Below, in pieces: positions 1 to 61,925 of a DNA stretch of 64,000 nt (its first letter is position 1; the number at the start of each line of letters is the position of its first letter). The position numbers and the translations under genes are program-made. Source of the DNA: Bacteroidota bacterium. GTDB taxonomy: Bacteria; Bacteroidota; Bacteroidia; Cytophagales; UBA9547. A model generated the notes under the pieces. That model ran no database searches, had not been told where the DNA came from, and saw only the letters and a list, made by a program, of their open reading frames with translations. Location of the stretch: contig JBEEOW010000017.1 of NCBI GenBank assembly GCA_041191405.1, forward strand, positions 10,317 to 74,316, in the 5' to 3' direction.

Positions 1-216
1 AAAACTCAAAAACCAAATTAAATAATTGATAGGTGTAGATTTTTTTAAAACAATGGGAACAAGCCAGAAATAGTTGATATAGAATAAGGCTCCTGTAACT
101 AAAGTATTGCCTGCATTCATCCAAAGGTTTGTTGAATCCTCAAAATAATCTCTACTAATATTGGCTACCCAAAATAATAAATGTAGCCAAAATATATTTT
201 TTACTATTTTATTCAT
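1..216 (-). CDS. Sensor histidine kinase paralogue, N-terminal membrane region (partial, runs off window start)
   Basis: My translation of the minus strand from ATG at 216-214 is open to position 1: MNKIVKNIFWLHLLFWVANISRDYFEDSTNLWMNAGNTLVTGALFYINYFWLVPIVLKK... This parallels the N-terminus of the adjacent kinase (FYFNYLYLVPQFLIKK). The start overlaps the upstream stop by 8 nt. Confidence 0.45.
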   Translation of the reverse strand, partial: MNKIVKNIFWLHLLFWVANISRDYFEDSTNLWMNAGNTLVTGALFYINYFWLVPIVLKKSTPINYLIWFLSF

Positions 217-1983: not shown

Positions 1984-4353
1984 ATGAAATATTTAATATA
2001 CATTTTATTATTTTGGTTTGGAGCGAGCAATATTGCATTGGCTCAAAATGCTTCAATTACAGGCACAGTAACTGACGAAAATAACAATCCAGTTGAATTT
2101 GTGAATATAAAACTGATTTCTTTACCTGATTCAGCAAAGGTAAAAGTGCAAACTACCAACGAATTTGGGCAATACCGATTTAATGAATTACCTGCTGGTA
2201 AATATGCATTGGTTTCACTGTTAATTGGTTATGATAAAAATGTCAGTGAGTCTATTATTTTGTTGCAAGATGAGAAAAAGACTTTTAAAGTAAGTATAAA
2301 ATCTACAGTTCTTAAAACAGCCGAGATTACTGTTACCGCAAAACGCCCATTAGTACGTGTAGAGGATGGTAAAATGATTGTTGATGTTGAAAATACATTG
2401 TCAAATTCAGGACAATCGGCAATTGAAGTTTTGAGGAAATCACCAGGTGTATTTATTGACCAAGATGGTAAAATTCAGTTAAAAGGGAAGTCAGGTGTGC
2501 AAGTTATGCTTGATGACAAAGTGATGTATATGAGTGAAGATCAATTGGCAAATCTTTTGAAATCTATTCCTGCTGACCAAATTAAAGAAATTGAGTTAAT
2601 TACAAGCCCATCTGCGAAATATGACGCAACTGGTACTGCTGGTATTATAAATATTAAGCTTAAAAAAGGTGCTTATGAAGGTTGGAATGGATCAACAAAT
2701 TTATCAGTGGGTTCTGGGAAATTCAGAAAAAGCAGTGTTGGTGCAAATTTAACTTACAAGAAAAATAAAATATTCTTTAATACAGGTTTGCAACATCAAA
2801 ACAGTGTGAATTACTCTGATTTCTATAACGACAGAAACGATTCGGATCCAACAGTGTTGAATAAAAGAATATACAATTCAACGCAATACGAAATGCCATT
2901 TACAAATACCAATTTCAATTTGAAAGGTGAGTATAAAGTAACTGAAAAAACATCTTTTACTTTTGACTTAAATGATGGTTTTGGTAGATACAATTGGCAT
3001 GGAAACGGATTTTCAAAACAATATAACCAAAGTGATGCTGTACGAAGTTCATTTTCAAATAAAGACGATGGATATACTCAATGGTTTAACGTATACACAA
3101 GTTTAGGTTTTAAACATAAATTTGATACAAATGCTACTGTATTAGATGGTTATGCAGCTTACAATAGTAATTTTGGCCATGAAGAAAAATTGCAAAGTCT
3201 AATCCAATTCGATTCATTAGGTGCTGATGCCAAAAATCCTTTTTATTTTAAAAATAATCTAAACTATTATTCTAATAAATATAATGCACAATTAGATTTT
3301 AAGAAAAAGTTAGGAGAAAAAATAAAAATAGAAACAGGAATTAAAGGTGTGCACTTGGATGATAATAATCCTAATAATATTACAATTACCCAAAATCACG
3401 CAGAGAAAGATGTTAGTAATTATTTTATTTATGAAGAAAATGTGTATGCGGCATATGGTTTAAGTTATTTGAATTTTGGGAAATGGAATATTCAAGCTGG
3501 TTTAAGGGTTGAAAATACACAAACAAAAGGTACTTTGTCATTGATTGATAGTGTGTTTACTCGTAATTATACAAACTTATTTCCAACGGGTAATATTACT
3601 TTTGTACCAAATGACAAACGTTCACATGCCCTGATGTATTCTCGAAGAATTACTCGTCCTGAAGGTGATCAATTAAACCCTGTTTTAAATATTATTGACC
3701 CATATAATGCTTGGGGAGGGGATCCATATTTACTACCTCAATATGCTGATAATACTGAGCTTACTAATACATTCTTTGGAGGAGGTTTAGTAGCTTCAGC
3801 AAATTACACTTATGTTAAAAATCCAATTGTTTGGACAAATAAACTTTCTAAAGTAGATAATAGATTTATTAATGGTCCACGCAATCTTGAATTTCAAAAA
3901 AGTTTTGGTGTAACAATTTCCGTTAATGCTCCAATATTTAAATGGTGGCAAACAAGTAATAGTGGAGCATATATTTATAATCAGTTTGTTGGCACAACAG
4001 ATTTTGGAAAAATTGATAACCAAATGGGAGGTTGGACAGCCAATTCAACACAAACATTTAGTTTGCCAAAGGATTTTACTGTAGAAGCATCTGGAATGTA
4101 TAACTCGCCAACTTCATATGCATTTTCAAAATCTTATGCACGTTGGCAAGTGAACTTATCAGTACAAACAAAAATTTGGAAGAAAAAAGCATCAATAAAA
4201 CTAGCATTTAATGATATGTTTTGGACTTTCCAATATGGAGGTTCAAACCAAATGGGCACATCGTTTCAAAAGTCGGGTTACCGTTGGGATAACAGAACTG
4301 TAATGTTTACTTTCTCATACAGATTTGGAAATCAGTTAATGAAATCGGAGTAG
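1984..4353 (+). CDS. Outer-membrane beta-barrel protein, TonB-dependent-receptor-like, with N-terminal carboxypeptidase-regulatory-like domain
   Basis: Signal peptide ending ALAQ. CarbopepD_reg-like ITGTVTDENNNPVEFVNIKL. Plug-like SPGVFIDQDGKIQLKGKSGVQVMLDDK. Long beta-rich C-terminus ending TFSYRFG. Confidence 0.75.
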   Translation: MKYLIYILLFWFGASNIALAQNASITGTVTDENNNPVEFVNIKLISLPDSAKVKVQTTNEFGQYRFNELPAGKYALVSLLIGYDKNVSESIILLQDEKKTFKVSIKSTVLKTAEITVTAKRPLVRVEDGKMIVDVENTLSNSGQSAIEVLRKSPGVFIDQDGKIQLKGKSGVQVMLDDKVMYMSEDQLANLLKSIPADQIKEIELITSPSAKYDATGTAGIINIKLKKGAYEGWNGSTNLSVGSGKFRKSSVGANLTYKKNKIFFNTGLQHQNSVNYSDFYNDRNDSDPTVLNKRIYNSTQYEMPFTNTNFNLKGEYKVTEKTSFTFDLNDGFGRYNWHGNGFSKQYNQSDAVRSSFSNKDDGYTQWFNVYTSLGFKHKFDTNATVLDGYAAYNSNFGHEEKLQSLIQFDSLGADAKNPFYFKNNLNYYSNKYNAQLDFKKKLGEKIKIETGIKGVHLDDNNPNNITITQNHAEKDVSNYFIYEENVYAAYGLSYLNFGKWNIQAGLRVENTQTKGTLSLIDSVFTRNYTNLFPTGNITFVPNDKRSHALMYSRRITRPEGDQLNPVLNIIDPYNAWGGDPYLLPQYADNTELTNTFFGGGLVASANYTYVKNPIVWTNKLSKVDNRFINGPRNLEFQKSFGVTISVNAPIFKWWQTSNSGAYIYNQFVGTTDFGKIDNQMGGWTANSTQTFSLPKDFTVEASGMYNSPTSYAFSKSYARWQVNLSVQTKIWKKKASIKLAFNDMFWTFQYGGSNQMGTSFQKSGYRWDNRTVMFTFSYRFGNQLMKSE

Positions 4354-4419: not shown

Positions 4420-4449
4420 AGAGATATGGCATGCCATGTCTCTTTTTTA
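4420..4449 (+). terminator. Rho-independent terminator built on a 12-bp palindrome AGAGATATGGCA/TGCCATGTCTCT plus T-tract
   Basis: Perfect pairing apart from one G.U wobble, followed by TTTTTTATT. Lies 66 nt after the barrel-gene stop. Confidence 0.75.
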
Positions 4450-4567: not shown

Positions 4568-5107
4568 ATGACAGATCAAGAAATCATATCAAGCCTTAAG
4601 TCGAATAGGCCACAACTTGGGCTTAAGGAATTGTACAAACAGTATACGCCAGTTAAAAAGTTTATTATCAATAATGGCGGTTCGGCTGATGATGCTTATG
4701 ATATTTTTCAAGAAGCTATTTTGGTTTTTTATGACAAAGTATTACACACTGAATTTGAACTCAGTAGCACTATTGGCACTTATTTGTTTAGTATTTCAAA
4801 ATACAAATGGAAACAGGTTTTGATTGCAAAAAATAGATTAAACGAATATGTCGGTTTATTTTCAGAAGGGGACTTTATAGTGGAAGAAAATGAATCGTAC
4901 TTTCAAATAGCTGAAAATGCTCTGGCTCAAATTGGCGAAAAGTGTAAAGCTATTTTAGTGTCGTTTTATCACTACAAACTAAGTATGACTAAAATTGCCG
5001 AAACTTATGGTTTTACTTCTGAAAATGTGGCTAAAAATCAGAAATACAAATGTTTAGAAAAAGCTCGAAATGCATTTAAGTCGCTTTTAGTACAAGCCAA
5101 TGTTTAA
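4568..5107 (+). CDS. RNA polymerase sigma-70 family ECF-type sigma factor
   Basis: 179 aa. Region-2-like DIFQEAILVFYDKV...YLFSISKYKW. Region-4 HTH LSMTKIAETYGFTSENVAKNQKYKCLEKA. An anti-sigma-like gene follows 11 nt later. Confidence 0.75.
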   Translation: MTDQEIISSLKSNRPQLGLKELYKQYTPVKKFIINNGGSADDAYDIFQEAILVFYDKVLHTEFELSSTIGTYLFSISKYKWKQVLIAKNRLNEYVGLFSEGDFIVEENESYFQIAENALAQIGEKCKAILVSFYHYKLSMTKIAETYGFTSENVAKNQKYKCLEKARNAFKSLLVQANV

Positions 5108-5118
5108 TTATTGCCAAT

Positions 5119-6384
5119 ATGAGAAATGAATTAAATACCATAGAACAAATTGAGCGATTTTTAAACAATGAACTCAATCCTGATGAAAGAGAAACTTTTA
5201 AACAAGAAATGGCCTTGGATCAAGATTTACAAGAAAATGTAATTGCTCAAAAAGTAATGCAAAGAGCAATTATGCAACTCGGAATGCGAGAAGAAATTGC
5301 AAATGCAGGTAAAAGCTACCAAAAGGAGTTGAAAATAAGAATTACAATTTGGGTAATGGTAGGTATTGGAATGGCTTCTGTAATTGGGTTTTCAATATTT
5401 AAATTATTGCAACACGACTCTACAGGAATTCAGAGGGTTAGGTTTGAGAATAACAAATTGAAAGTATCTAATCAATTATTGGAAAAACCAACATTCAGCA
5501 ATTTAAAACTGGATAATATAAATAATAATTCAACAAAAAAAATATCCAATAATGAAAGTTTAAAAGAAGATATTGCTCATCAAGAACATGATTATAACAA
5601 ATTTGTTCATTCAGATTCTCTTTTAAATAAATCCATTTCTGAATATAATGCAGAAAAACCAAGCTCGAATAAAGAGCATGAAGCGAGTGCTAAAATTCAG
5701 AAACAAGAAATTTTAACATCACAAAATGCCAAACTTATACCTCAAAAAACCAAAAGAAAAGATGAGTCAAAAATGGATGATGTTTTGGAATCTATAGGGG
5801 GAATTTTTAATAATTGGGGCTCAATATTTAAGTCAAAACCCAAAACAAATAAAGGAAAAATTCAAGCAGCTACAATAACCATTACTAATAATTTGTCGAA
5901 GGATGTATTAGTTTTTTGGGTTGATGCTCAGGGGAATGAAATGAAATATAAGTTGATAAGAGCAAACGAAGGTTATGTACAAGAAACATATTTGGGGCAC
6001 GTTTGGGTGTTACGAACATCAGATGATTCTGAGAAAGTAGTTGAGTTTAAAATCACCAAAAGAAATCAACATTTTGATACAGAAGGCGAAGTTTCAAATG
6101 CAAAATTTAAAGAAACTCAGAAAAATATATTTTGGGCACCAGTTTTTAAAGAAGCAATTAAAGCATCAACAATTACTGTAAAAAATACTTTACAAGAAAC
6201 TGTTGCTGTGTATTGGCTTGATTACAGAAATATGGAAATTCAATATTTTAAGCTTGCAGCAAATGAAGAAAAAAAGCAAGCAACATTTATTGACCAAAAT
6301 TGGGTTATTCGCAAATTAAGTGACTCCACAAAGGTGCTCCAATTTACTGTAACTAAGTCTGAAGAATATTTTGAAGTTAAATAA
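5119..6384 (+). CDS. Single-pass anti-sigma-factor-like membrane protein with two C-terminal VHL beta-domain-like repeats
   Basis: Cytoplasmic helical N-terminus (aa 1-70), TM helix aa ~74-96 (IRITIWVMVGIGMASVIGFSIFKLL), then a low-complexity linker. Two ~75-aa repeats (aa ~248-320 and ~346-421) align without gaps to the pVHL core W88..Y98..S111-Y-x-G-H115-x-W117. Confidence 0.65.
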   Translation: MRNELNTIEQIERFLNNELNPDERETFKQEMALDQDLQENVIAQKVMQRAIMQLGMREEIANAGKSYQKELKIRITIWVMVGIGMASVIGFSIFKLLQHDSTGIQRVRFENNKLKVSNQLLEKPTFSNLKLDNINNNSTKKISNNESLKEDIAHQEHDYNKFVHSDSLLNKSISEYNAEKPSSNKEHEASAKIQKQEILTSQNAKLIPQKTKRKDESKMDDVLESIGGIFNNWGSIFKSKPKTNKGKIQAATITITNNLSKDVLVFWVDAQGNEMKYKLIRANEGYVQETYLGHVWVLRTSDDSEKVVEFKITKRNQHFDTEGEVSNAKFKETQKNIFWAPVFKEAIKASTITVKNTLQETVAVYWLDYRNMEIQYFKLAANEEKKQATFIDQNWVIRKLSDSTKVLQFTVTKSEEYFEVK

Positions 6385-6400
6385 TTTTATTACAAACAGT

Positions 6401-8404
6401 ATGAAATATATATTGATATTTATTGTAGTGATAACAAATGTTGTCAATACCTTCGGACAAGGGAATAATACCTTATTAGTGGATGACTTTTCAGGTATTC
6501 ATTTGAAAAATTTATTTAATAATTATTGGTACGAATACACTGATAAGGCAAATAATGGCAACTCAGTGCTAAAGTTCTATTACGAAACCGAGGCAACCAA
6601 CAAAGTATTACGAGTTGATTATAAGCTAAATAAAGGTGCTTGTCCTCTCCATGCTTATGCAGTTTTAAGCTGCCCAATAAAGCCTGAAACCGTTGATACT
6701 GCTGATTTTAATGGTATTGCTTATGATTTCAAAGGCGATGAACACACTTTTAAGTACCGTATTTCTGCGGTAAAAGACTATTCATTTCATGAAAAAAATG
6801 TTGATTACTCAGACGATTGGACTACAGTAATTATCCCGTTTTCTGAATTAAAACAAACTTGGGGAAACCCTGTACCTTTCAATAAAAATTTAATTGAAAC
6901 TCTACAATGGGAAATAGTTAGTTATAGCAATGATACTGGCTATTTTCAAATAGACAATATTCGATTGATAAAGGATATTGATAAATTTAAAGCTGAAGTA
7001 AAACGAACTACGCCTCGTTATAATCTTGATACTACTTTTTCTGCTGAAGGTGTAAAGAAAGATATAATTGCATTCAAAAATGGTTTGGAAGAGGTTCACC
7101 CTAATTTGTATCGTTATATTTCAAAAAAAGCATTAGATTCTTTATTTAATCTAACCATAAATTCAATAAATAAGCCTCTAACAGTTTCTCAAGCATTATT
7201 AAAAATCAAACCAATAAAGATTGCCATAAAAGATGGTTTTGATGTTGCCTTGCCAAGTAAATATCTTGAAGCACTCGAAAACAATAAATTATTCCCTTTT
7301 GATATTAAAATTTTCAATGAAAAACTATATATCTATAATAATTATACTTCTGATACTACCATTAAAAAAGGAGATTTAATTGTTTCAATCAATAATCAGT
7401 CTGCATCTGATATTGTCAAAAATATGCTTGCTCAATGTACCAATGCTGGTAACATTACCTCAAAATCAAAGTATTATGTTGAATGGGCGTTTAATACATT
7501 GTTCCCTACTCTTTATGGGCTTAGCGATTCTTATCAATTAGAATTTAAAAATTCAAAAGGAGAAGTTTTAAACAAAAAAATACAAGGTATAACTGCTGAC
7601 AAAATAGAATATTATCATAATAATAGAAACAAAAAGTCTGATTTTGAGCCTTATAAATTAAGTTTTGATAAAAAGAAAAGTATAGCTACATTAAAAATAT
7701 CAAGCTTTAGAGATGAAGATTTATACAATGATAAATATAAATTTTTCAAATTTTTGAAAGCATCTTTCGAAGAAATAAAGCAGAAAAAAATTAAAAATTT
7801 AATTCTTGACCTTCGATACTGCGATGGTGGAAACGGTTTTAGTGCTTTAGAGTTAATGAAATATGTCAGTGTAAAAGATTTTCATTTCCTTGATTCATTA
7901 AGGTTGAAAATCAATAACAAACCTTCATTTTTTAATGGTAAAAACCCAATAAAAATAGGTAGTAATTTGGTGAAGCGAGCAACAGGTTATTACGGATACG
8001 AAGGATTAATTAAAAATTATGAAAATGAATCGCCAATTACTCCTTATAAATCTCATTTTACAGGTAAAATTTATGTGCTAACAAATGGAGCAAGTTATAA
8101 TCCATTTATGCTGAATGTTGTATTAAAAGAGCAGCCCAAAGTAGTGTTTATTGGAGATGAGAGTATATCGGAACGTTTAGAATTATCAGGTTATGGTGCA
8201 CCTCTTGTTTTGCCCAACACCAAAATTGTTACTTACATCCCGATTCAAAACTATTATTATTCAAAACCTGAGAATGAAATTTATCAAATAGGGCGAGGTT
8301 TAATGCCAGATTACGAAATGCAGGAAGACTTAGAAAGTTTTTTGATTGGCAAAGATAATTTAATGGACTTCACTTTGGACTTAATCAATAAACCAACAAA
8401 ATAA
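6401..8404 (+). CDS. Secreted S41-family (C-terminal processing/tail-specific) peptidase-like protein with N-terminal CIA30/CBM-like domain
   Basis: ATG at 6401 yields signal peptide MKYILIFIVVITNVVNTFGQ; the track's 6371 start is a TTG inside the upstream stop region. S41-like blocks IKNLILDLRYCDGGNG and YVLTNGASYNPF. The N-terminal 170 aa are jelly-roll-like (YWYEYTDKANNGNS...FQIDNIRL). Confidence 0.6.
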   Translation: MKYILIFIVVITNVVNTFGQGNNTLLVDDFSGIHLKNLFNNYWYEYTDKANNGNSVLKFYYETEATNKVLRVDYKLNKGACPLHAYAVLSCPIKPETVDTADFNGIAYDFKGDEHTFKYRISAVKDYSFHEKNVDYSDDWTTVIIPFSELKQTWGNPVPFNKNLIETLQWEIVSYSNDTGYFQIDNIRLIKDIDKFKAEVKRTTPRYNLDTTFSAEGVKKDIIAFKNGLEEVHPNLYRYISKKALDSLFNLTINSINKPLTVSQALLKIKPIKIAIKDGFDVALPSKYLEALENNKLFPFDIKIFNEKLYIYNNYTSDTTIKKGDLIVSINNQSASDIVKNMLAQCTNAGNITSKSKYYVEWAFNTLFPTLYGLSDSYQLEFKNSKGEVLNKKIQGITADKIEYYHNNRNKKSDFEPYKLSFDKKKSIATLKISSFRDEDLYNDKYKFFKFLKASFEEIKQKKIKNLILDLRYCDGGNGFSALELMKYVSVKDFHFLDSLRLKINNKPSFFNGKNPIKIGSNLVKRATGYYGYEGLIKNYENESPITPYKSHFTGKIYVLTNGASYNPFMLNVVLKEQPKVVFIGDESISERLELSGYGAPLVLPNTKIVTYIPIQNYYYSKPENEIYQIGRGLMPDYEMQEDLESFLIGKDNLMDFTLDLINKPTK

Positions 8405-13075: not shown

Positions 13076-14167
13076 ATGAAAAAGATAGTTGTATTAATTA
13101 GTTTAATTTTTAGTGTAATCTCAATGGTTGTGGCACAAAATCAGTTGGTTAAGTTCGAAACCAATTTGTATGATTTTGGAAAAATAAAAGAAGAAGCAAT
13201 CGAACATACTTATGAATTTAAGTTTGCAAATACATCTTCAACTAAAATTTTAATATCGAATGTAATTGCAAGTTGTGGTTGCACTACGCCAACTTGGACA
13301 AAAGATAGCGTTTCTGCTGGCAAAAGTGGCTTTATAAAAGCCGTTTTCAACTCAACCAATCGTCCGGGTTTGTTTGAAAAAACTTTGAAAGTAGTAGTAA
13401 GTTCTCCTACCAAAACTGATACTATTCAATTGGGAATCAAAGGTGAGGTAATGCCCAAACCAAGAACAGGAAAACTTGATTTTCCCGATAAATTGGGAGC
13501 ACTTCGTGTACAATCTCGTTATTTTAATCTTGGAAATGTAAAAACTACAGACAAACCTGCTGAATTTAATTTTGGTATTTATAACGATACCACTTTTGAT
13601 TTAACATTAAAAGTGAAAAGTTTACCAATGCCAAAATACATGAATGTGCAACTTGACCCTGAAGTGCTAAAGCCAGGACAAAGAGGGAATATTAAAATTA
13701 CATTCAATGCAAAAGAACGTGGTGATTATGGTTATGTGTCTGATTATTTTGAACTTGAAACAAATGAAGAGTCAGGTGCTAGTAAATTGATTTATATTGC
13801 TACAACTGTTGAAGAATATTTTCCGCCAATGACTGAAGCGCAACTAGCCTTTGCTCCTAAAATGGCTGTTGATAAAAAAGAATACGATTTCAGAACTGTA
13901 CGTGAAGGAGAATTAGCAAAAGTTGCATTTGTTTTAACAAACACAGGCAAAACAGAATTAGTTATCCGTAAAACAAAAGCAAGTTGTGGTTGTACTGCAT
14001 CTGAACCTGAGAAAAGTAACTTAGCTCCTGGCGAATCAACTAATATTAATGTAACATTTAATTCAGAAGGAAGGTCAGGAACGCAAACAAAAACTATTAC
14101 AGTTTTTACAAACGATCCAACTTCACCTGTTCAATATTTAACAATTAAAGCTTTTGTTGTTAAATAG
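13076..14167 (+). CDS. Secreted tandem DUF1573 domain protein
   Basis: Signal peptide. Two copies of the DUF1573 signature (ASCGCTTPTW...; ASCGCTASEP...) with the Ig-like F.F.N.G pattern. Confidence 0.75.
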   Translation: MKKIVVLISLIFSVISMVVAQNQLVKFETNLYDFGKIKEEAIEHTYEFKFANTSSTKILISNVIASCGCTTPTWTKDSVSAGKSGFIKAVFNSTNRPGLFEKTLKVVVSSPTKTDTIQLGIKGEVMPKPRTGKLDFPDKLGALRVQSRYFNLGNVKTTDKPAEFNFGIYNDTTFDLTLKVKSLPMPKYMNVQLDPEVLKPGQRGNIKITFNAKERGDYGYVSDYFELETNEESGASKLIYIATTVEEYFPPMTEAQLAFAPKMAVDKKEYDFRTVREGELAKVAFVLTNTGKTELVIRKTKASCGCTASEPEKSNLAPGESTNINVTFNSEGRSGTQTKTITVFTNDPTSPVQYLTIKAFVVK

Positions 14168-52632: not shown

Positions 52633-55600
52633 ATGAAAAGATTTAAAAATAAGGCTGATATTTTCTGGCTTTCTTTTGCTGTAATTTTATTAATTGGTTT
52701 TGCTTATCGAATTTTTACTAAAGAAAGGTTGTCGACAACTGCAAGTATTGAACGTTCATTTGCAGCGCCTGATACTGCCTATGCTGAATATGTGTACGCT
52801 TATACAAATGGAATTATTTCTTCGCATGATAAAATCAAAATTATTTTAACAGCTGATATTACTGATTCTTTAGAAAGAAGTGAATTGTTAACCAGCGATT
52901 TATTCGATTTTTCTCCTGAAATAAAAGGCAAACTTTCGTGGGAAGGTACCAATGCTTTGGTTTTTACACCTGATGCTCCACTTCCTTCGGGAATAGAATA
53001 TGCGGGTACTTTTGCCTTGAAAAAGGTTTATAAAGATATTGATGATAAGCTTGCTGAGTTTCCACTACACTTTAAAGTTATAAAACAAACTTTTGAAACT
53101 GATGAACCAACTTTGGGGTATCCTGAGAAATCGGATACAAGAAAGGTGGCTTTTACTGGGGTACTTTATAGTGCTGATATTGCCACGCCTGCCGAAGCTG
53201 AAAAACAATTGAAAGCTACTCAAAATGGTAAGGATTTGAAAATAACTTGGGTTCATGATGCAAACGGAACTACGCATAGGTATAACATTGAAGGTGCTGA
53301 GCGAACTTCTTCAAATGAAACGGTTAAAATTATTTGCGCTGAAAATACTGATGACGAACAAATTATCGAAACTGAAATTCCTGCCTTGGGTGTATTTAAA
53401 GTAGTGAAATTTAAAGTGGTGAATGAAGGAGAGCAATATTTGAGTGTGTTGTTTTCTGATCCATTACTTGAAAATCAGGATTACAATGGTATGGTTTCTA
53501 TTGATAACAATAACAACAATTTTAGATTTTTGGCTATTGATAATGAATTAAGAGTTTATCCTGAAAATACTTTTGATAGAGAGGTAAATGTGAATATTTC
53601 TGGTGCAATTAGAAATATTACTGCAGCCATGATGGGTGATGATAGAAATGAAAAAGTAGATTTTTCGGATGAGTTACCAGCTATTGCTTTGCTTTCAAGT
53701 GGAACTATTTTGCCAAGTTCAGCAAATCAAAAAGTGAGTTTTAAAGCAAAAGCGATTAAATCTGTAAATATTGAAATTGTTAGAATTTATGAAACGAATG
53801 TGCCTCAATTTTTGCAAACAAATGAACTAAACGGACAAAGTGAAGTGAAACGAGTTGGGCGACCAGTATTTCAACGCAAAGTTTCTTTGAAAAAAAGCAA
53901 TGCATCTAATCTTAAAAAATGGAACAATTTTCAATTCAATATTAGTGAATATATTCAACAAGAACCAGGTGCAATTTATCAAGTAAGTTTTAGGTTTGGA
54001 AAAGCCGATGTTTTGTGTGAATGTGCTGATAGTGATGAAAATAAAGATTGGAATTTGTTGAAACAAGGTTTGTCGTGGTTTGCTGATGTTGACGACAAAG
54101 ACTACGATAATGTAGAAAATTACTATTATGATGATTATTACGAAGGAGAAGGTGATTATTACGAAGAGTATGACTGGAAAAAACGTAATGACCCTTGCAA
54201 TAGTGCCTTTTATAATAGTAATCCAACATCGGTACAATTAAATATTTTGTCATCGGATATTGGATTAATTGCAAAAGCGGGCATAAATAATCAATACCAA
54301 ATTTTTGCTACCAATTTGGTAACAGCTCAAATTGAACAAGGTGTAAGTATTGAATTAATCAATTATCAAAAACAATCAATTGCAAAAGCAGTAACCGATG
54401 CAGAGGGAAAAGTTGTATTTGATTTAGGTAAAAATATTCCATTTTTAGCGATTGCAAGTAAGGGAAAAGAAAAAGCATATTTGAAATTATTAGACGGTGA
54501 TGCCTTATCAATGTCGAATTTTGAAGTAAGTGGAGAGTATATTCAAAAAGGATTAAAAGGCTTTATTTATGGAGAAAGAGGCGTTTGGCGTCCGGGAGAT
54601 AGTTTGTTTTTAACATTTGTGTTGGATGCTCAAAATGGTAAAGTTTCTCCAAATCAACCAATTGTAATGGAATTGCAAACACCACTTGACCAAGTTTATA
54701 CCAGAAAAGTATTAAACAAAGGAGTAGATGGAATGTATGTTTTCAAATTAAAAACAGAGCCAGATGCACCAACAGGAAACTGGTTTGTGAATGTAAATGT
54801 GGGCGGAGTAAAGTTTAGCAAAAAAATAAAAATTGAAGCCGTTAAACCTAATCGCTTAAAAATCAATTTGCAATTTGCCGAAAAAGAAATTTACAATATC
54901 AATAAAAATTCAATTGCAACCATTTCAAGTGCTTGGATGCATGGAGCTCCTGCGGCAAATTTAAGAGCTACTTATGATGTGTTTTATGGTAAATCGGTAT
55001 TTGAGGCTGGAAAGAAATTTGAAAATTATACTTTTGAAATTCCAGGGATAAGTATTGATGTGCCTGAAAGTAAAGTGTTTGATGGAGCATTAAGTGCACA
55101 AGGTGTGGCTACATTTAACCCTAATTTTAATAATTTAAAAGGTAATTTAAGTCCTGCGGTAAGTGCATATTTTAGAGGAAAGGTATATGAAAAAAGTGGA
55201 GATTTTAGTACAGATTTTACTACTGTTACCATTTATCCTTACCAAACAATTGCAGGTTTAAACATTAAGCAAGATGAAGGTAGATACAATTATGCTGTAA
55301 ATGAAGAGATTGATTTAGATGTAGTTAGTATTAATCCTAAAGGCGAATATACCTCAAATAGTGCATTACAAGTTTCAATTGTGAAGTTGAACTGGCAATG
55401 GTGGTGGGAAAGTACAAGCGATGGCGGTGTAACCAATTATATGTACAACGACAATGCATCGGAAGTAACAAGTGCATCTATTCCATTAAGTAGAGGAAAA
55501 GGAAAATTCTCATTTAAATTAGATGATAAACAATGGGGTAGGTATTTGGTAAAAGTTACAGACCCAAATTCGGGTCACGTAACTGGTGAAATTATCTACG

Positions 55601-58230
55601 TTGGTACGCCTTACGATTACAGCGATAAATCAACTTATGCTACAATGCTTACTTTTTCAGCAAAGAAAACGGTGTATAAAGTGGGCGAAAATGTTGAATT
55701 TTCATTCCCATCAGAAGCTGGAGGAAATGCTTTGGTATCTATTGAAAATGGAACATCGGTTGTAAAAACATTTTGGACTAAAACCAAACAAGGTAAAACT
55801 GACGTTGCCTTTTTAGCTGCATCAGGTATGGCACCGAATATTTATGTAAATGTTACGCTTTTATATCCACATGCTTACACGGCAAAAGGCAAACCTATGC
55901 GTTTGTATGGGGTAGTTTCTGTAGATATTGAAGACCCTGCAACGCATTTAGAACCAGTAATTTCTGCACCAGAATCAATAAAACCTGAGCAAACTTATAA
56001 TGTAACTGTTAAGGAAACACAAGGAAAACCAATGACTTACACCTTGGCTGTGGTTGATGAAGGTTTGCTTGATCTAACAAAATATACCTTACCTGAAATT
56101 TGGAAATCATTTTATGCTAAAGAAGCCTTAGGGGTTAAATCATGGGATTTCTTTGATAAGGTGATTAATGCTTTAGGAAGTGATATTGGTAAAATGTTTG
56201 CTATTGGTGGTGATGATTTTGCAAAACGTAAAGCTGGTGTGAAAGCAAATAGATTTAAGCCTGTGGTAACTTTTGTTGGTCCGTTTACAATTCCAGCAGG
56301 TGGACAAGCAACGCACAAACTGAAAATGCCAAACTATGTAGGTTCGGTTAAAATAATGGTTGTTGCTGCCAAGAATGGTGCTTACGGTACAGCTGAACGT
56401 ACCATGAAAGTGAAACAAGATTTAATGGTGTTGGCTACTTTGCCTCGTGTGGCAACTCCAAATGATGAGTTTTATATTCCGGTTACTATTTTTAATTATT
56501 CAAATGTGAAAACGGTAAATGTTTCATTACAAACCAATGCTATTTTCAAACCTTTGCAAGGAACTAATTTGAAAGTAAATTTTGGAAATGAGCAAGAAAA
56601 AGTGGTTTACTTTAAAGTGAAAGTTGCCAATGAAACAGGTATTGCAAATGTGAAAATTGCTGCAACGGCGGGTGCTGCAAGTTCAAAAGATGTTCAAGAA
56701 CTTGAAGTTAGACCAAGTAATCCTGTTACAACACAAATTAAATCATATACCGTGAAAGCTGGTTCAAATGGTGTAATTGCTTACACTCCATTTGGTACAA
56801 AAGGTACTAATTCGGTTTATGCTGAATTTGCATCCATGCCACAAATTAGCACAAGGTCTTTACAAGGGTATCTGGAAAAATATCCACATGGTTGTTTAGA
56901 GCAAGTAACTTCTGCGGCTTTCCCGCAGTTGTTTGTGTCAAATTTAATTGAAATGGATAGTCGCCAAAAATCACTTGCCGACTTACACATTAAAGCTGCA
57001 ATAAATAAACTTAGTACTTATCAAGTGGCAAGTGGTGGTTTTGCTTATTGGCCAGGAGCAGCACAAGTAGAAGAGTGGGTTACAAGTTATGCCGGTATGT
57101 TTCTTTGTCAGGCAGAGAAACAAGGGTATTATATTCCGTCATCCATGTTGAAAAAATGGAAAGTTTCGCAAACTAAACTTGCACAAACATTTTTACCAAG
57201 TTCAAAAAATCAATTTGAGCATCAAACCCAAGCGTATCGTTTATATAGTTTGGCGTATGCTGGTGCTCCTGATTTAGGTTCGATGAATAGGTTAAAAGAA
57301 TATGCACAGCTTGATAATCAGTCACGTTGGTTGTTGGTGGCAGCTTATGCTTATGCAGGTCAAACTACAGTAGCTAATAATTTAAGATTGAAATGTAATC
57401 CAAATTTATTTGAATCATATTACTACTATTATACATTTGGTTCAGTTACTAGAGACCAAGCCATTGTATTGGATGTATTGTGTTTACTAAAACAAAAAGA
57501 TGCGGCAGTGACTATGTTCAAAAAAGTTGCACAAAGTATTTCGGCAGATAATTATAATACTCAGGATGTTGCAATGAGTTTACTAGCGGTGAGTAATTTT
57601 GCAAAAACATTTGGTTTAGGTACTGGCGTCTATGGAAATTACACAAATGATGGAGCAGCTTCTGTGAATATCAATGCTACACAATCGTTGGTGAAAACCT
57701 TGAATGTATCAGGAACAAATAACCATCAATTAAAAGTAAATAATACAGGCAAATCAATTTTGTATGTAAATGTGGTATCGCAAGGAGCAAGTGCAACTCC
57801 AATTACTGTAGCTCAAAATAATGGTTTGAAGATTGATATACAATATGTTGATGCAAGTAACAGACCAGTAAATATATTGCAATTACCACAAGGTACGGAG
57901 TTTAAGGCAATTATTTCAGTAAGTAATATTTCAGCCGAACCGCAAACTCGTTTAGCATTAACACAAACATTGCCATCGGGCTGGGAGTTTATTAAATTAA
58001 AACAAAATGAAGAAACAAGTTCAGCAACCTATGATTACAAAAATGTACGAGATGCAAGTGCTTCATTCTATTTTGATTTAGGTAGAAACGAGAAAAAAAC
58101 ATTTACCTTAACATTACACGCCTCATTTGCTGGAACATATTATATGCCACCTGTATTGTGTGAAAATATGTACAACAGAAAGGTAATTGCTTATACAGCT
58201 GGCAAAAATGTAAATGTTGGGTTGAGGTAG
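52633..58230 (+). CDS. Bacterial alpha-2-macroglobulin family protein with intact thioester motif
   Basis: 1865 aa. N-terminal TM anchor, repeated MG domains. Thioester GCLEQ at Cys1421 (nt 56893-56904) within YPHGCLEQVTSAAFP. Confidence 0.9.
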   Translation: MKRFKNKADIFWLSFAVILLIGFAYRIFTKERLSTTASIERSFAAPDTAYAEYVYAYTNGIISSHDKIKIILTADITDSLERSELLTSDLFDFSPEIKGKLSWEGTNALVFTPDAPLPSGIEYAGTFALKKVYKDIDDKLAEFPLHFKVIKQTFETDEPTLGYPEKSDTRKVAFTGVLYSADIATPAEAEKQLKATQNGKDLKITWVHDANGTTHRYNIEGAERTSSNETVKIICAENTDDEQIIETEIPALGVFKVVKFKVVNEGEQYLSVLFSDPLLENQDYNGMVSIDNNNNNFRFLAIDNELRVYPENTFDREVNVNISGAIRNITAAMMGDDRNEKVDFSDELPAIALLSSGTILPSSANQKVSFKAKAIKSVNIEIVRIYETNVPQFLQTNELNGQSEVKRVGRPVFQRKVSLKKSNASNLKKWNNFQFNISEYIQQEPGAIYQVSFRFGKADVLCECADSDENKDWNLLKQGLSWFADVDDKDYDNVENYYYDDYYEGEGDYYEEYDWKKRNDPCNSAFYNSNPTSVQLNILSSDIGLIAKAGINNQYQIFATNLVTAQIEQGVSIELINYQKQSIAKAVTDAEGKVVFDLGKNIPFLAIASKGKEKAYLKLLDGDALSMSNFEVSGEYIQKGLKGFIYGERGVWRPGDSLFLTFVLDAQNGKVSPNQPIVMELQTPLDQVYTRKVLNKGVDGMYVFKLKTEPDAPTGNWFVNVNVGGVKFSKKIKIEAVKPNRLKINLQFAEKEIYNINKNSIATISSAWMHGAPAANLRATYDVFYGKSVFEAGKKFENYTFEIPGISIDVPESKVFDGALSAQGVATFNPNFNNLKGNLSPAVSAYFRGKVYEKSGDFSTDFTTVTIYPYQTIAGLNIKQDEGRYNYAVNEEIDLDVVSINPKGEYTSNSALQVSIVKLNWQWWWESTSDGGVTNYMYNDNASEVTSASIPLSRGKGKFSFKLDDKQWGRYLVKVTDPNSGHVTGEIIYVGTPYDYSDKSTYATMLTFSAKKTVYKVGENVEFSFPSEAGGNALVSIENGTSVVKTFWTKTKQGKTDVAFLAASGMAPNIYVNVTLLYPHAYTAKGKPMRLYGVVSVDIEDPATHLEPVISAPESIKPEQTYNVTVKETQGKPMTYTLAVVDEGLLDLTKYTLPEIWKSFYAKEALGVKSWDFFDKVINALGSDIGKMFAIGGDDFAKRKAGVKANRFKPVVTFVGPFTIPAGGQATHKLKMPNYVGSVKIMVVAAKNGAYGTAERTMKVKQDLMVLATLPRVATPNDEFYIPVTIFNYSNVKTVNVSLQTNAIFKPLQGTNLKVNFGNEQEKVVYFKVKVANETGIANVKIAATAGAASSKDVQELEVRPSNPVTTQIKSYTVKAGSNGVIAYTPFGTKGTNSVYAEFASMPQISTRSLQGYLEKYPHGCLEQVTSAAFPQLFVSNLIEMDSRQKSLADLHIKAAINKLSTYQVASGGFAYWPGAAQVEEWVTSYAGMFLCQAEKQGYYIPSSMLKKWKVSQTKLAQTFLPSSKNQFEHQTQAYRLYSLAYAGAPDLGSMNRLKEYAQLDNQSRWLLVAAYAYAGQTTVANNLRLKCNPNLFESYYYYYTFGSVTRDQAIVLDVLCLLKQKDAAVTMFKKVAQSISADNYNTQDVAMSLLAVSNFAKTFGLGTGVYGNYTNDGAASVNINATQSLVKTLNVSGTNNHQLKVNNTGKSILYVNVVSQGASATPITVAQNNGLKIDIQYVDASNRPVNILQLPQGTEFKAIISVSNISAEPQTRLALTQTLPSGWEFIKLKQNEETSSATYDYKNVRDASASFYFDLGRNEKKTFTLTLHASFAGTYYMPPVLCENMYNRKVIAYTAGKNVNVGLR

Positions 58231-59109: not shown

Positions 59110-59358
59110 ATGGATAAATATTCAACTGAGGAATTGACTCTGTGGTTCAAAAAACAATTAGCAGCAGAATTAAATGTACCTAGTGAAAATGTAGATTTAA
59201 ATGCAACAATATCAAGTTTCGGTTTAGATTCTTTATCAAATTTAACATTGGTTTTTTCAATTGAAGAATATACTAATTTAAGTATTGATCCAACTGTTTT
59301 TGAGGAATTTAATACATTTGAAGAAGTGATAGAATGGATTCAGAATCAAAAAAAATAG
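59110..59358 (+). CDS. Acyl/peptidyl carrier protein (phosphopantetheine attachment site)
   Basis: 82 aa. Canonical FGLDSL with Ser41 (nt 59230-59232), followed by helix II/III-like LTLVFSIEE. Confidence 0.8.
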   Translation: MDKYSTEELTLWFKKQLAAELNVPSENVDLNATISSFGLDSLSNLTLVFSIEEYTNLSIDPTVFEEFNTFEEVIEWIQNQKK

Positions 59359-60575
59359 TAAAGTGGAACCCTTACTCAGAAGGATATTTTGAAAATCCTT
59401 ATAAGCATTTGGCTGAATGTAAAAAATCGTCTCCAGTACAAATTGGATTAAAAAACTATTATATTTTATTCAATCATAGTGATGTGCGAAATGTAATTAA
59501 AAATCCAGATTTTTTAACTTCTGATTTTAGTGAATTTTTTAAAGAAAAAGAACCCTATATTTTTAAAGAGTCTAATGCATGTCCATATTTATCAAAAAGT
59601 ACATCAAAATGGTTGATGTATTTGGATGGAGAAGATCATTTAAAAGCTAGAGAGCTTGTAGAGAAGGGTTTGTCAGTGTTTAATTATGATGAATTAACAA
59701 ACCAAGCTATTGATGAAATTTTAGTTGAATTAAAAGCTTTAAAAGTAAACAATGAAATTGATTTAGTTGATGTTGCTGCAAAGTTACCTGTGATTATTAC
59801 TAATAAAATGTTAGGGTTAAGTAATCATTTTGATTTTTATGAATCTAAAACTTTAGCACATTCATTGGCTTATTCTCAAGATTTATTTCTTCCTCGACAA
59901 GTATATTTAAAAATTAATTCAGATATGGAGTTGATGTTTGAATTTTTGTCAGAAAAATATGAATCTTTATTAATAAATCCTGATGAATCGTTTTTTTCAA
60001 TTATAATAAAGTTAAATAATGAATTTAATTATAATTTTTCAAAAAGTGAATTAATTTCAGTAATCATGGTTTTGTTTTTAGGTTCTATTGAAACCTCTAA
60101 AGATACATTATCAATGATTTTTTTAGAGTTATTAAGAGATAAGTCGCTTTTAAAAACCATACAAAATAATACACAAATTGAAAATAATATTTTAGTTGAA
60201 GAGTTTTTGAGATACAGTTCACCTTTACAATATACCGTTAGGGTCAGTACCCTTGATTATACTATTGGAGATATTACAATTCCTGCAAATTCAAAATTAC
60301 TTCTATGTTTAGCTTCTGCAAATAGAGACGAAGAGGTTTTTGACGATGCTCAAAATATTGTTCCAAATCGAAAATATAATCCTCATTTTGCTTTTGGCGG
60401 AGGCTTGCATTCATGCGTAGGTGCCAAACTTGCAAGAATTGAATTAAGGGCATTTATTCCTAAAATAGCTTCATTTTTAAGTAGATGTGATATAAGTATT
60501 GAAAATGCACCTGTTTGGCAAAAAACTATTATGATGAGAGGTTTGAAGAGCTTAAATGTGGTTGTGAAAAAATAG
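59334..60575 (+). CDS. Cytochrome P450
   Basis: 413 aa. I-helix GSIETS, ExxR (EEFLRY), and heme loop FAFGGGLHSCVGAKLA with Cys361 (nt 60414-60416). Confidence 0.9.
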   Translation: MDSESKKIVKWNPYSEGYFENPYKHLAECKKSSPVQIGLKNYYILFNHSDVRNVIKNPDFLTSDFSEFFKEKEPYIFKESNACPYLSKSTSKWLMYLDGEDHLKARELVEKGLSVFNYDELTNQAIDEILVELKALKVNNEIDLVDVAAKLPVIITNKMLGLSNHFDFYESKTLAHSLAYSQDLFLPRQVYLKINSDMELMFEFLSEKYESLLINPDESFFSIIIKLNNEFNYNFSKSELISVIMVLFLGSIETSKDTLSMIFLELLRDKSLLKTIQNNTQIENNILVEEFLRYSSPLQYTVRVSTLDYTIGDITIPANSKLLLCLASANRDEEVFDDAQNIVPNRKYNPHFAFGGGLHSCVGAKLARIELRAFIPKIASFLSRCDISIENAPVWQKTIMMRGLKSLNVVVKK

Positions 60576-60576
60576 T

Positions 60577-61923
60577 ATGATAGTTCATTTAATAATTATT
60601 TTCTTTTTCATATTTACTGGAATAGGGTTTTATGTTTTAGTAAAAAATCAATCATACAAATGGATAGCCTTATTAGTTCCAAGCTTAATAATCTATTGTT
60701 ATTATATAAAGTGGTTATTTTTAATAGTGTTGTTAATCACTATTTTCGTATATTTTGCTTCTATTTATTTAGATAATAAGAGAAAAATATTAAATAAACT
60801 TAGTTATTATTTTGTTGTATTTGTTACTTTATTACCCTTGTTTTTTTTCAAAATCAACGAAACGTTGAATGTAAAATGGTTAACTGATGCATCATTTTTG
60901 GGATTATCATTCGTTACATTTAATGCTTTAAGCTATTTGATTGATATAAAAAAAGGTTATCTCCAGCCTGAAAAAAATATACTTTTATTGTTGTTATTTA
61001 TTTGTTTTTACCCGCATATTTTAGCCGGACCCTTGCATAAAGTAAAGTATTTATTACCTCAATTTATGCAGATTTGTATCACCCCAAACAATATAAGTTT
61101 AGGTTGTAGATTGATTTTGTGGGGAATTTTTAAAAAATATGCAATTGCTCAAAATTTAGCAATAACAGTTTCTTCAATCATTGATAAGCCTGAAAGTCAC
61201 TGTAATATTAACTTGTTGGTTGGTGGTACTATTTTCTTTTTTCAAATTTATTGCGATTTTTCAGCTTATGTAGACATTATGAAAGGTGTGGCTAAAATTT
61301 TTAATATTGACATCAAAACTAATTTTAAAGACAGAATATATCTTGCAAATTCAAGACTTGCATTTTGGAGTGGATGGCATGTTACCTTGAATAATTGGTT
61401 TAGAGATTATGTTTTTTACGCTATTGCCAAAAATTATAAGAAACAATGGCAACTTGATATTGTAACAATTTTTACATTTGTTTTAATTGGGCTATGGCAT
61501 GGATTTACAATTTCATTCATTATATGGGGTTTAATTAACGGGGTTTGGTTCGTATTTGAAAAATATTTGAAAGTATATTTTGATTTTTTACCAAATACGA
61601 TTCGAAATTATTTGGGTATCATTTATCATATCACACTAGCTTCTTTTGTTGCACTTTTATTTAGAAGTAAATCTATATCATTAACAATTTCAAACTTATT
61701 TAACTTTCAATCTTTAAAATTTGATAAAATTGAAATTTCTTCAGGCGCAATTTTGTCATTTATACTAATGGACTTATTTTATATGTATGCAAAAGGAAAA
61801 CCTATTGAAGAATTCATTGGTCAAATGTCTGTAACAAAACGTTGGGTAGTTTATTTTATATTAAGCTTTTCAATAATTACATGGCAAATAGGTAAAAGTG
61901 ATTTTTATTATTTTAAATTTTAG
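60577..61923 (+). CDS. MBOAT family membrane-bound O-acyltransferase (DltB/AlgI/PatA-like)
   Basis: 448 aa polytopic. FWSGWHVTLNNWFRDYVFY, and the invariant His in IGLWHG (His308, nt 61498-61500). Confidence 0.88.
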   Translation: MIVHLIIIFFFIFTGIGFYVLVKNQSYKWIALLVPSLIIYCYYIKWLFLIVLLITIFVYFASIYLDNKRKILNKLSYYFVVFVTLLPLFFFKINETLNVKWLTDASFLGLSFVTFNALSYLIDIKKGYLQPEKNILLLLLFICFYPHILAGPLHKVKYLLPQFMQICITPNNISLGCRLILWGIFKKYAIAQNLAITVSSIIDKPESHCNINLLVGGTIFFFQIYCDFSAYVDIMKGVAKIFNIDIKTNFKDRIYLANSRLAFWSGWHVTLNNWFRDYVFYAIAKNYKKQWQLDIVTIFTFVLIGLWHGFTISFIIWGLINGVWFVFEKYLKVYFDFLPNTIRNYLGIIYHITLASFVALLFRSKSISLTISNLFNFQSLKFDKIEISSGAILSFILMDLFYMYAKGKPIEEFIGQMSVTKRWVVYFILSFSIITWQIGKSDFYYFKF

Positions 61924-61925
61924 CT

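Follow-up and report, generated by a model that had tools for sequence, protein, structure and literature searches.

Tandem von Hippel-Lindau beta domains in a bacterial protein with an anti-sigma-like layout

The 64,000-nt stretch of Bacteroidota contig JBEEOW010000017.1 analysed here (the window, within which all positions are given) contains an open reading frame (ORF 5119-6384) whose product ends in two tandem von Hippel-Lindau (VHL) beta domains, the fold with which human pVHL recognises hydroxyproline (Hyp). The Hyp-pocket set of pVHL (W88, Y98, S/T111, H115 and W117) is complete in the first of these domains, repeat 1, and incomplete in the second, repeat 2, where Q393 stands in place of His115. 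Across the bacterial family the pocket residues are lost together while the fold core is retained. The gene for this tandem-VHL protein lies directly between those for a probable, divergent extracytoplasmic function (ECF) sigma factor and an S41-family serine peptidase. We propose that 4568-8404 encodes an ECF sigma/anti-sigma/S41 signalling unit in which the tandem VHL domains would form the periplasmic input for a peptide centred on Pro or Hyp, a proposal whose chances of being right or wrong we take to be evenly balanced. The VHL domain itself is not new to bacteria; the sigma-coupled architecture is.

Fold and pocket residues of the two repeats

A sequence-only reading of the ORF, whose translation is as it had quoted, described tandem VHL beta-domain-like repeats of which the first keeps the pVHL pocket. 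The Pfam profile for the domain (PF01847, gathering cutoff 21 bits) matches the whole protein in two stretches with E=1.1e-9 and 38.6 bits, which bears out the assignment. Scored alone, repeat 1 reaches 26.1 bits (E=8.8e-6) and repeat 2 reaches 19.3 bits (E=1.2e-3), slightly below the cutoff. Aligned to each other without gaps, the repeats share 40% of 73 residues (E=8e-20). A faint VHL match is already listed for the protein in the JGI precomputed annotation. A phmmer search against PDB sequences returns human pVHL chains only, with query residues 7-55 aligned without gaps to I75-G123 of pVHL, the very alignment and spacing that had been read by eye. This pairwise match (E 0.4-2) is not significant alone, so the statistical weight comes from the profile match.

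The predicted structure agrees with the profile. A single-sequence AlphaFold2 run gave a predicted local distance difference test (pLDDT) score of 48 and is superseded by a model built from a 39-sequence alignment of two-domain relatives. The latter has a pLDDT of 86.6 and contains two seven-stranded beta domains joined by a low-confidence loop. When the PDB is searched with Foldseek, the top match is the pVHL chain 1vcb_C (E=7.7e-6, probability 1.00, root-mean-square deviation (rmsd) 1.2 Å, 81 columns). About 45 of the 50 matches listed are pVHL chains, mostly with an rmsd of about 2.4-2.8 Å over 81-87 columns.

Six residues form the Hyp site of pVHL, namely W88, Y98, H110, S111, H115 and W117; of these, S111 and H115 bond to the hydroxyl of Hyp and Y98 to its carbonyl (PMC9528729). 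The equivalent residues of repeat 1 are N257 (N78), W267 (W88), Y277 (Y98), T290 (S111), Y291 (Y112), G293 (G114), H294 (H115; codon 5998-6000) and W296 (W117). Tyr98, His115 and Trp117 are thus present and Ser111 has become Thr, just as the sequence-only reading had it. The gapless alignment and the low rmsd suggest that these residues are placed as in the pVHL pocket. Neither of the two outcomes that would have refuted the sequence-only reading was observed. Repeat 2 has N356, W366, Y376, T389 and W395 at the corresponding positions, together with N371 for Gly93, F390 at position 112, D392 for Gly and Q393 (codon 6295-6297) for His115. Written as a degenerate DNA pattern, the pocket signature matches the window once, at 5887-6006, and matches none of 100 shuffles.

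pVHL, the Hyp reader of CRL2-VHL, is among the best-studied human recognition modules, both for its part in oxygen sensing and as a handle for proteolysis-targeting chimeras (PROTACs). The likeness to its beta domain extends to the seven-stranded beta sandwich, the gapless register over residues 75-123 and, in repeat 1, the pocket residues (with Thr for S111) plus N78. The differences lie outside the pocket. The tandem-VHL protein lacks the alpha domain, or VHL box (no PF17211 match), and ends one residue past repeat 2. It would therefore have no link to elongin C or a cullin and is not an E3 ubiquitin ligase subunit, which makes it a domain homologue of pVHL and not an orthologue. Unlike the human domain, the bacterial domains stand in tandem, are tethered to a membrane helix and are probably extracytoplasmic. 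Conservation does not extend to F76, I109, R107, P99 and the other residues with which pVHL reads the hypoxia-inducible factor (HIF) sequence on either side of Hyp, and overall identity is about 15-24%.

The VHL family in bacteria

VHL domains in bacteria are known from Pfam and the databases but are unstudied. In the literature searched, prokaryotic VHL domains surface only twice: as the accessory protein of retron type X, with an IHF-TM-VHL arrangement (TM, transmembrane helix), in a paper that states the function of prokaryotic VHL to be unknown (PMC7736814), and as a hypothetical Litorilituus protein noted in silico (PMC9002001). The family emerged here when 1.84 billion cluster representatives were searched exhaustively with HMMER, which at E<1e-3 finds the domain in at least 372 mostly bacterial protein clusters. 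A search of a protein word index with the 39-sequence alignment yielded 8 proteins only; the C-terminal region as query gave no match in that index, and tblastn gave none against plasmids. PF01847 matches 106 of the 110 cluster representatives scanned, with E down to 1.7e-36, so the tandem-VHL protein is a divergent member of a family that Pfam already covers.

The tandem-VHL protein is alone in its 50%-identity cluster, and the other clusters are 24-40% identical to it. It shares with these relatives the tandem pair of domains, Thr at position 111 and a recurring wiring of cytoplasmic module, TM helix and VHL domain, whereas, among the members surveyed, the anti-sigma-like head and the sigma neighbour are found only here. 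The protein itself was met in metagenome data alone, on contigs of JGI 3300046808 and of Logan runs SRR3518558x. Its host, with a GC content of 31%, lies below all 120 other loci among the matches listed (36-74%).

An iterated hidden Markov model (HMM) search pulled out 405 copies of the domain, on which the conservation figures are based. Their consensus is F.N....V.vyW.D..G.E..Y..L.PG....Q.T[YF]..H.W..R. The most constant position is N78 (97%), followed by W88 and W117 (88% each), H115 (82%), G93 (81%) and Y98 (68%). Position 111 is Thr or Ser in 92% of copies (77% and 15%; 315 and 63 of 405), making Thr the family norm, and position 112 is Tyr in 44% and Phe in 35%. Of the 177 copies that fit the signature regular expression, 171 have a G93-to-T111 spacing of 17 residues. 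At the level of sequence, the Hyp-contacting set, including the pair of Thr/Ser and His, is conserved from bacteria to man.

These figures modify the view that repeat 2 is degenerate. Gln at position 115 is rare (11 of 405 copies) and is the sole meaningful oddity of this repeat; Phe at position 112 (143 of 405) and variation at position 114 are usual among family members, and the Trp, Tyr, Thr and Trp of the pocket are kept. The site of repeat 2 thus appears altered rather than clearly dead. Two tandem domains are the commonest layout in the family (94 of 150 proteins). Both pockets are intact in 60 of these 94 two-domain relatives, in contrast to the His-to-Gln change of repeat 2 here, and a further 31 keep one.

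The pocket residues tend to be lost along with His115. W88 is present in 96% of copies with His115 and in 51% of those without it, Y98 in 79% and 52%, T/S111 in 99% and 67%, Y/F112 in 88% and 42%, and W117 in 93% and 67%. The structural N78, by contrast, is present in 98% and 97%, and G93 is kept nearly equally. Fisher p values for this co-loss range from 7e-6 to 2e-20 and are overstated, since the domain copies are phylogenetically related. The pocket residues go with the His and Asn78 stays, so the pocket acts as a single functional unit separate from the fold core, the pattern expected of a ligand pocket.

Some family members depart widely from the two-domain layout. Giant proteins (P0002-P0007, P0011, P0012, P0019, P0051 and P0054), 1,700-2,140 aa in length, are for the most part made up of 7-12 VHL repeats in tandem; several have no signal peptide at the first repeat, and they contain almost no other Pfam domain.

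The domain keeps characteristic company. Among the cluster representatives its fusion partners are mainly peptidases, namely calpain C2 (5), caspase C14, CHAT, astacin, reprolysin, matrixin and M90. Fusions to the peptidase inhibitors cystatin/SQAPI and I36 also occur, as do fusions to CAP, RicinB, OmpA, PG_binding, lipase and a type IX secretion system (T9SS) sorting domain. The DNA pattern of the pocket signature, which picks pocket-intact domains only, was also scanned on metagenome contigs and finds at least 120 loci; 118 of the 120 listed have a VHL ORF. Two of the metagenome matches also carry the VHL box (PF17211, VHL_C) and are probably true eukaryotic VHL genes; that the same pattern catches them indicates how alike the bacterial and eukaryotic signatures are.

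Among the matches listed, 86 ORFs have their 5' end within the locus, and these match VHL (83), DPPIV_N (32) and Peptidase_S9 (27). Fusion to a dipeptidyl peptidase IV (DPP-IV)-like S9 peptidase is therefore the commonest in this sample, which is biased to pocket-intact domains. In these fusions, whose catalytic motif is [YF]G[GT]SAGG, the propeller comes right after the VHL domain. The 32 fusions listed are 41-96% identical to one another (median 51%). They belong to GC-rich metagenome bacteria (loci within L009-L128, for example L078:5001-7715:+, L109:2126-4915:+, L027:2740-5205:+ and L045:243-2918:-). The term VHL is absent from two architecture surveys of the prolyl oligopeptidases (PMC4522959; bioRxiv 2024.09.22.614393). 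Further independent protease fusions, each with a C-terminal pocket-intact VHL domain, are found in a rhomboid intramembrane protease (L024:695-1753:-) and a caspase-like C14 protein (L088:979-2427:-). Among the matches listed, the VHL domain thus travels mainly with peptidases, above all proline-specific DPP-IV-like ones.

In four further proteins the VHL domain forms the outer part of a single-pass membrane protein. Three have the arrangement TIR-TM-VHL (P0061, P0152 and P0155; L129:6001-6831), with one or two extracytoplasmic VHL domains, and the fourth, P0124, has a GYF_2 head (GYF-TM-VHL). The TIR proteins resemble membrane-spanning sensors whose output is of NADase type; around P0152 lie DUF6894 and small ORFs without annotation. 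The domain can accordingly be wired across the membrane to TIR outputs and, in the tandem-VHL protein, to an apparent anti-sigma head. The co-loss of pocket residues, the DPP-IV fusion and the TIR-TM-VHL arrangement appear to be undescribed so far.

A proposed sigma-coupled unit and its alternatives

The tandem-VHL gene starts 11 nt past the stop codon of the sigma gene, and its own stop lies 17 nt before the start of the S41 gene, given an ATG at 6401. The + strand of 4568-8404 holds no terminator-like site (the count of such sites equals the shuffle expectation). The order of the genes for the outer-membrane protein (OMP), the sigma factor, the tandem-VHL protein and the S41 peptidase is identical on the four contigs displayed out of seven read. 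The short gaps, the lack of an internal terminator-like site and the shared order together indicate an operon-like unit. The OMP gene, from which the unit is separated by a terminator-like hairpin (Table 1), is probably a separate transcript and is a possible member of the regulon. A scan for sigma-70 promoters returned 61 sites against 46 expected and is uninformative in such AT-rich DNA.

The product of 4568-5107 is probably a divergent ECF sigma factor. It matches TIGR02937 (sigma70-ECF) with E=4.2e-11 and TIGR02985 with E=1.9e-8, the Pfam matches to r2 and r4 are weak, and its top match among PDB sequences is the ECF factor RpoE of Rhodobacter sphaeroides (2q1z, E=0.0023). The layout of the tandem-VHL protein is that of an anti-sigma partner: its gene is directly downstream of the sigma gene on the same strand, and a short head is followed by one N-in TM helix. 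Topology was derived from simple Kyte-Doolittle hydropathy and the distribution of Lys and Arg. The only hydrophobic segment of the 421-aa protein spans approximately aa 71-96, aa 1-73 are hydrophilic, and Lys or Arg occupies four of the ten residues preceding the helix. This cluster of positive charge suggests an N-in, C-out orientation, which would place the C-terminus in the periplasm.

Comparison of strain variants points in the same direction. Four variants of the tandem-VHL protein share 98-99% identity and have 14 variable sites. The head (aa 1-73) and repeat 1 contain none of these, the TM helix three, the linker nine and repeat 2 two (Y369N and R398S, both in one variant). With 12 of the 14 changes in the TM helix and linker, selection appears to act on the head and on repeat 1, and the invariance of the head beside a variable helix and linker suggests that it has a function of its own.

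In the mechanism that we propose, the 73-aa cytoplasmic N-terminus would hold the sigma factor, and the protein would cross the inner membrane once, its linker of about 150 aa carrying the two VHL domains into the periplasm. The pocket of repeat 1, with two Trp and a Tyr as walls and Thr and His as hydrogen-bond partners, would bind a short peptide element around a proline or hydroxyproline, supplied either by a peptide entering the periplasm or by a partner protein. Repeat 2, with its Gln for His, may serve as an altered or auxiliary site. Occupancy of the pocket would alter the proteolytic exposure of the periplasmic part; the co-encoded S41 peptidase is a candidate site-1 protease, and intramembrane cleavage would follow to release the sigma factor. 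The recurrent fusions to peptidases and inhibitors favour a proline or peptide ligand class. The S41 step has precedent in Prc and CtpA, S41 proteases that cut anti-sigma factors in Pseudomonas cell-surface signalling (PMC10392083, PMC11637429). The S41 peptidase encoded here finds no match among PDB sequences.

Two known systems resemble this arrangement. The RsgI anti-sigma-I factors of cellulolytic clostridia sense polysaccharides through a modular ligand-binding domain on a long linker (PMC6852018). Like the tandem-VHL protein they are single-pass proteins with a swappable extracytoplasmic ligand module, and they offer the most likely picture of how that protein works. RsgI differs in using sigma-I, where an ECF factor appears to be used here, in its N-terminal domain, in its carbohydrate-binding modules and in its Gram-positive hosts, and there is no homology between the two. 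FecR-type cell-surface signalling, with proteolysis by Prc/CtpA (S41) and RseP (PMC10392083, PMC11637429), likewise combines an ECF sigma factor, a single-pass anti-sigma factor, a TonB-type OMP and an S41 peptidase. By contrast, the S41 gene here lies inside the operon, and the input would be direct binding by the VHL domains. Pfam reports neither a FecR periplasmic domain on ORF 5119-6384 nor an STN signalling extension on the OMP (ORF 1984-4353) at E up to 10.

Several observations weigh against the proposed unit. The sigma factor falls narrowly short of its ECF family cutoff (42.8 against 42.9 bits for TIGR02937). The sequence-only reading had called the protein an anti-sigma factor with periplasmic repeats, and gene order and topology fit both parts of that claim; the N-terminal 100 aa, however, find no match in Pfam, NCBIfam, PDB sequences (noise only) or the protein word index, and these searches give no recognisable anti-sigma domain, such as zf-HC2 or one of RskA type, on the head. 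Anti-sigma domains are often too divergent for profiles, so the missing match weakens the anti-sigma claim without overturning it. Sigma families match at most one of 102 neighbouring ORFs at other VHL loci, and no sigma or anti-sigma family recurs in VHL proteins. A phmmer search with the sigma factor against all ORFs of the 120 VHL loci returned nothing at E=10, a weak negative given its low sensitivity. Since profiles miss even the head encoded in the window, the absence of anti-sigma heads elsewhere is weak evidence as well. The survey of architectures and neighbourhoods gives no other sigma-linked VHL protein, which upholds the earlier remark that the fusion is unusual. The wiring of ECF sigma factor, anti-sigma-layout tandem-VHL protein and S41 peptidase is, as far as seen, unique among the loci surveyed, and with no second example it is not checkable by conservation.

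Other points bear on the pocket and its ligand. The placement of the pocket residues is judged from the gapless alignment and the low rmsd rather than from distances in the model, and the aromatic residues of the pocket also help to stabilise pVHL (PMC3688787). The 32 DPP-IV fusions form one orthologous family, hence one old, well-maintained fusion event, which reduces their value for the ligand class. No prolyl hydroxylase was found among the 30 ORFs scanned for families of the 44 of at least 150 aa in the window (the other 14 and shorter ORFs were left out of the scan). Finally, some VHL relatives accompany sulfatases, a GH32 enzyme or lectin domains, so the ligand could be a glycan or something else.

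The sigma/anti-sigma unit may be as proposed and respond to a non-peptide ligand, such as a small hydroxylated molecule or a glycan, much as clostridial RsgI factors do with their carbohydrate-binding modules. Relatives are fused to, or lie beside, a sulfatase, NPCBM, a RicinB lectin, GH32 and SBP_bac_5/Opp-type transporters, and the neighbouring S41 peptidase has a CIA30-like domain, a fold that is carbohydrate-binding-like. Aromatic-walled pockets with polar hydrogen-bond partners suit sugars too, and modular sensor domains on anti-sigma factors have precedent (PMC6852018). We nevertheless consider a non-peptide ligand unlikely, as fusions to peptidases and inhibitors far outnumber the glycan-related ones and it is the exact Hyp-contacting set, down to its Thr/Ser and His, that bacteria share with man.

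A partner, whether the S41 peptidase, the OMP or another envelope protein, could instead dock on the VHL domains through a loop or tail that contains proline, and the signal would then convey this partner's state. Recognising other proteins is what pVHL itself does, the genes for the OMP, the anti-sigma-like protein and the S41 peptidase stay together on the contigs displayed, and a linker of this length could extend as far as the outer membrane. The anti-sigma factor of cell-surface signalling is contacted by the TonB-dependent transducer, which shields it from proteolysis (PMC11637429). The OMP here, however, has no STN signalling domain, a terminator-like hairpin lies between its gene and the sigma gene, and no partner motif is identified. 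Docking of this kind, which overlaps the favoured reading in that the Pro motif of a partner is also a peptide ligand, strikes us as improbable.

There is a similarly small chance that the protein is not an anti-sigma factor at all and acts as a membrane-anchored periplasmic binding or adaptor protein, for example one that presents substrates to the S41 peptidase. Its N-terminus has no anti-sigma homology, the S41 gene follows directly, and association with proteases is dominant among the relatives, where the VHL domain is fused directly to the protease. A 73-aa cytoplasmic helical head and one TM helix, in a protein whose gene starts 11 nt past that of an ECF-type sigma factor, nonetheless make a classic anti-sigma layout, and the invariance of the head among strain variants whose TM helix and linker vary suggests a function of its own. 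It is very improbable that the repeats are generic beta-sandwich spacers resembling the pVHL pocket in fold-stabilising aromatics only: in pVHL the aromatic side chains of W88 and W117 are buried (PMC9528729) and an aromatic cluster is stabilising (PMC3688787), yet conservation reaches 92% at the polar Thr/Ser111 and 82% at His115, the pocket residues are lost together while the structural Asn78 is retained, and repeat 1 is invariant among the strain variants.

Beyond the favoured reading of a peptide-gated sigma unit, a broader one would make the Pro/Hyp pocket of pVHL an ancient bacterial peptide-reading module, here gating an ECF sigma factor directly, and would trace the reader of animal oxygen sensing back to bacterial VHL domains. 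We hold this rather doubtful, and advance it tentatively. Its ligands would be, for example, breakdown peptides of collagen or of plant and algal Hyp-rich glycoproteins, or a hydroxylated envelope protein. Bacteria may use the old pVHL-type pocket to sense peptides. If Pro/Hyp binding proves true, the origin of the eukaryotic Hyp reader would be explained, ECF signalling would gain a new class of sensor, and small, stable bacterial Hyp-binding domains would be at hand as tools. That so well known a human pocket should have such an evolutionary tie is striking, and it can be tested; the locus stands alone as an orphan, at which we infer the key functional steps.

Features of the locus and its surroundings

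The features of the locus are collected in Table 1.

Table 1. Features of the sigma, tandem-VHL and S41 locus and of the upstream OMP gene, by position in the window.
Feature	Position	Strand	Basis or remarks
OMP gene, TonB-dependent-receptor-like	1984-4353	+	Signal peptide, CarboxypepD_reg, Plug, OMP_b-brl_3; PF14905 E=1.7e-88, PF13620 E=6.5e-12, Plug E=1e-4
Terminator-like hairpin and T-run, between OMP and sigma genes	4420-4443	+	10-bp stem with 4 GC pairs, then TTTTTATTGT; consensus match only
Probable divergent ECF-type sigma factor, 179 aa	4568-5107	+	TIGR02937, TIGR02985
Tandem-VHL protein, 421 aa: one TM helix, anti-sigma-like layout, VHL beta domains at the C-terminus	5119-6384	+	
N-terminal cytoplasmic region, putative sigma-binding domain, aa 1-73	5119-5337	+	Position and topology
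Single TM helix, approximately aa 74-96, RITIWVMVGIGMASVIGFSIFKL	5338-5406	+	Kyte-Doolittle window 71-89, mean 1.73
Low-complexity linker rich in N, K, S and E, aa 97-245 (149 aa)	5407-5853	+	No family match; presumably disordered and periplasm-spanning
VHL beta repeat 1, aa 250-320	5866-6078	+	Seven strands, pLDDT above 90; full Hyp-pocket signature
VHL beta repeat 2, aa 349-420	6163-6378	+	pLDDT 90-98; altered pocket
S41-family (C-terminal-processing type) serine peptidase	6401-8404	+	Signal peptide, PF03572 E=3.7e-10; N-terminal CIA30-like PF08547 E=2.1e-7; weak PDZ match

The strand opposite the OMP gene carries, immediately upstream of it, a tandem pair of His_kinase (PF06580) genes and the gene for a LytTR response regulator (209-1210, - strand; L001:3359-6092). 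A 7TMR-DISM protein is encoded further along from these, and the group forms a second regulatory system beside the sigma unit. At a locus elsewhere, the gene for a two-domain relative, P0151 (L007:8001-9020), stands directly upstream of two Opp-type ABC permease genes on a 642-kb contig, with a sulfatase and SBP_bac_5 nearby.

The rest of the window, with a GC content of 31%, is ordinary chromosome that encodes PNPase, RpoD, DnaN, PheT, RNase Y, a resistance-nodulation-division (RND) pump and other proteins, and also holds genes for DUF1573, GWxTD and SusC-like OMP proteins, which together with the GC content suggest a Bacteroidota origin. The ORF at 13076-14167 (+ strand) encodes three DUF1573/HYDIN-like Ig domains in one protein (E=1e-62), a protein type associated with Bacteroidota. 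A bacterial alpha-2-macroglobulin of 1,865 aa is encoded at 52633-58230 (+ strand), with MG2, bMG3/5/6/10, bait region and A2M domains; it is a periplasmic protease trap, unrelated to the VHL finding. Genes for a cytochrome P450 and an MBOAT acyltransferase and an unannotated 303-aa ORF follow in series at 59334-62837 (+ strand), and may represent a small cluster for the modification of a lipid or secondary metabolite.

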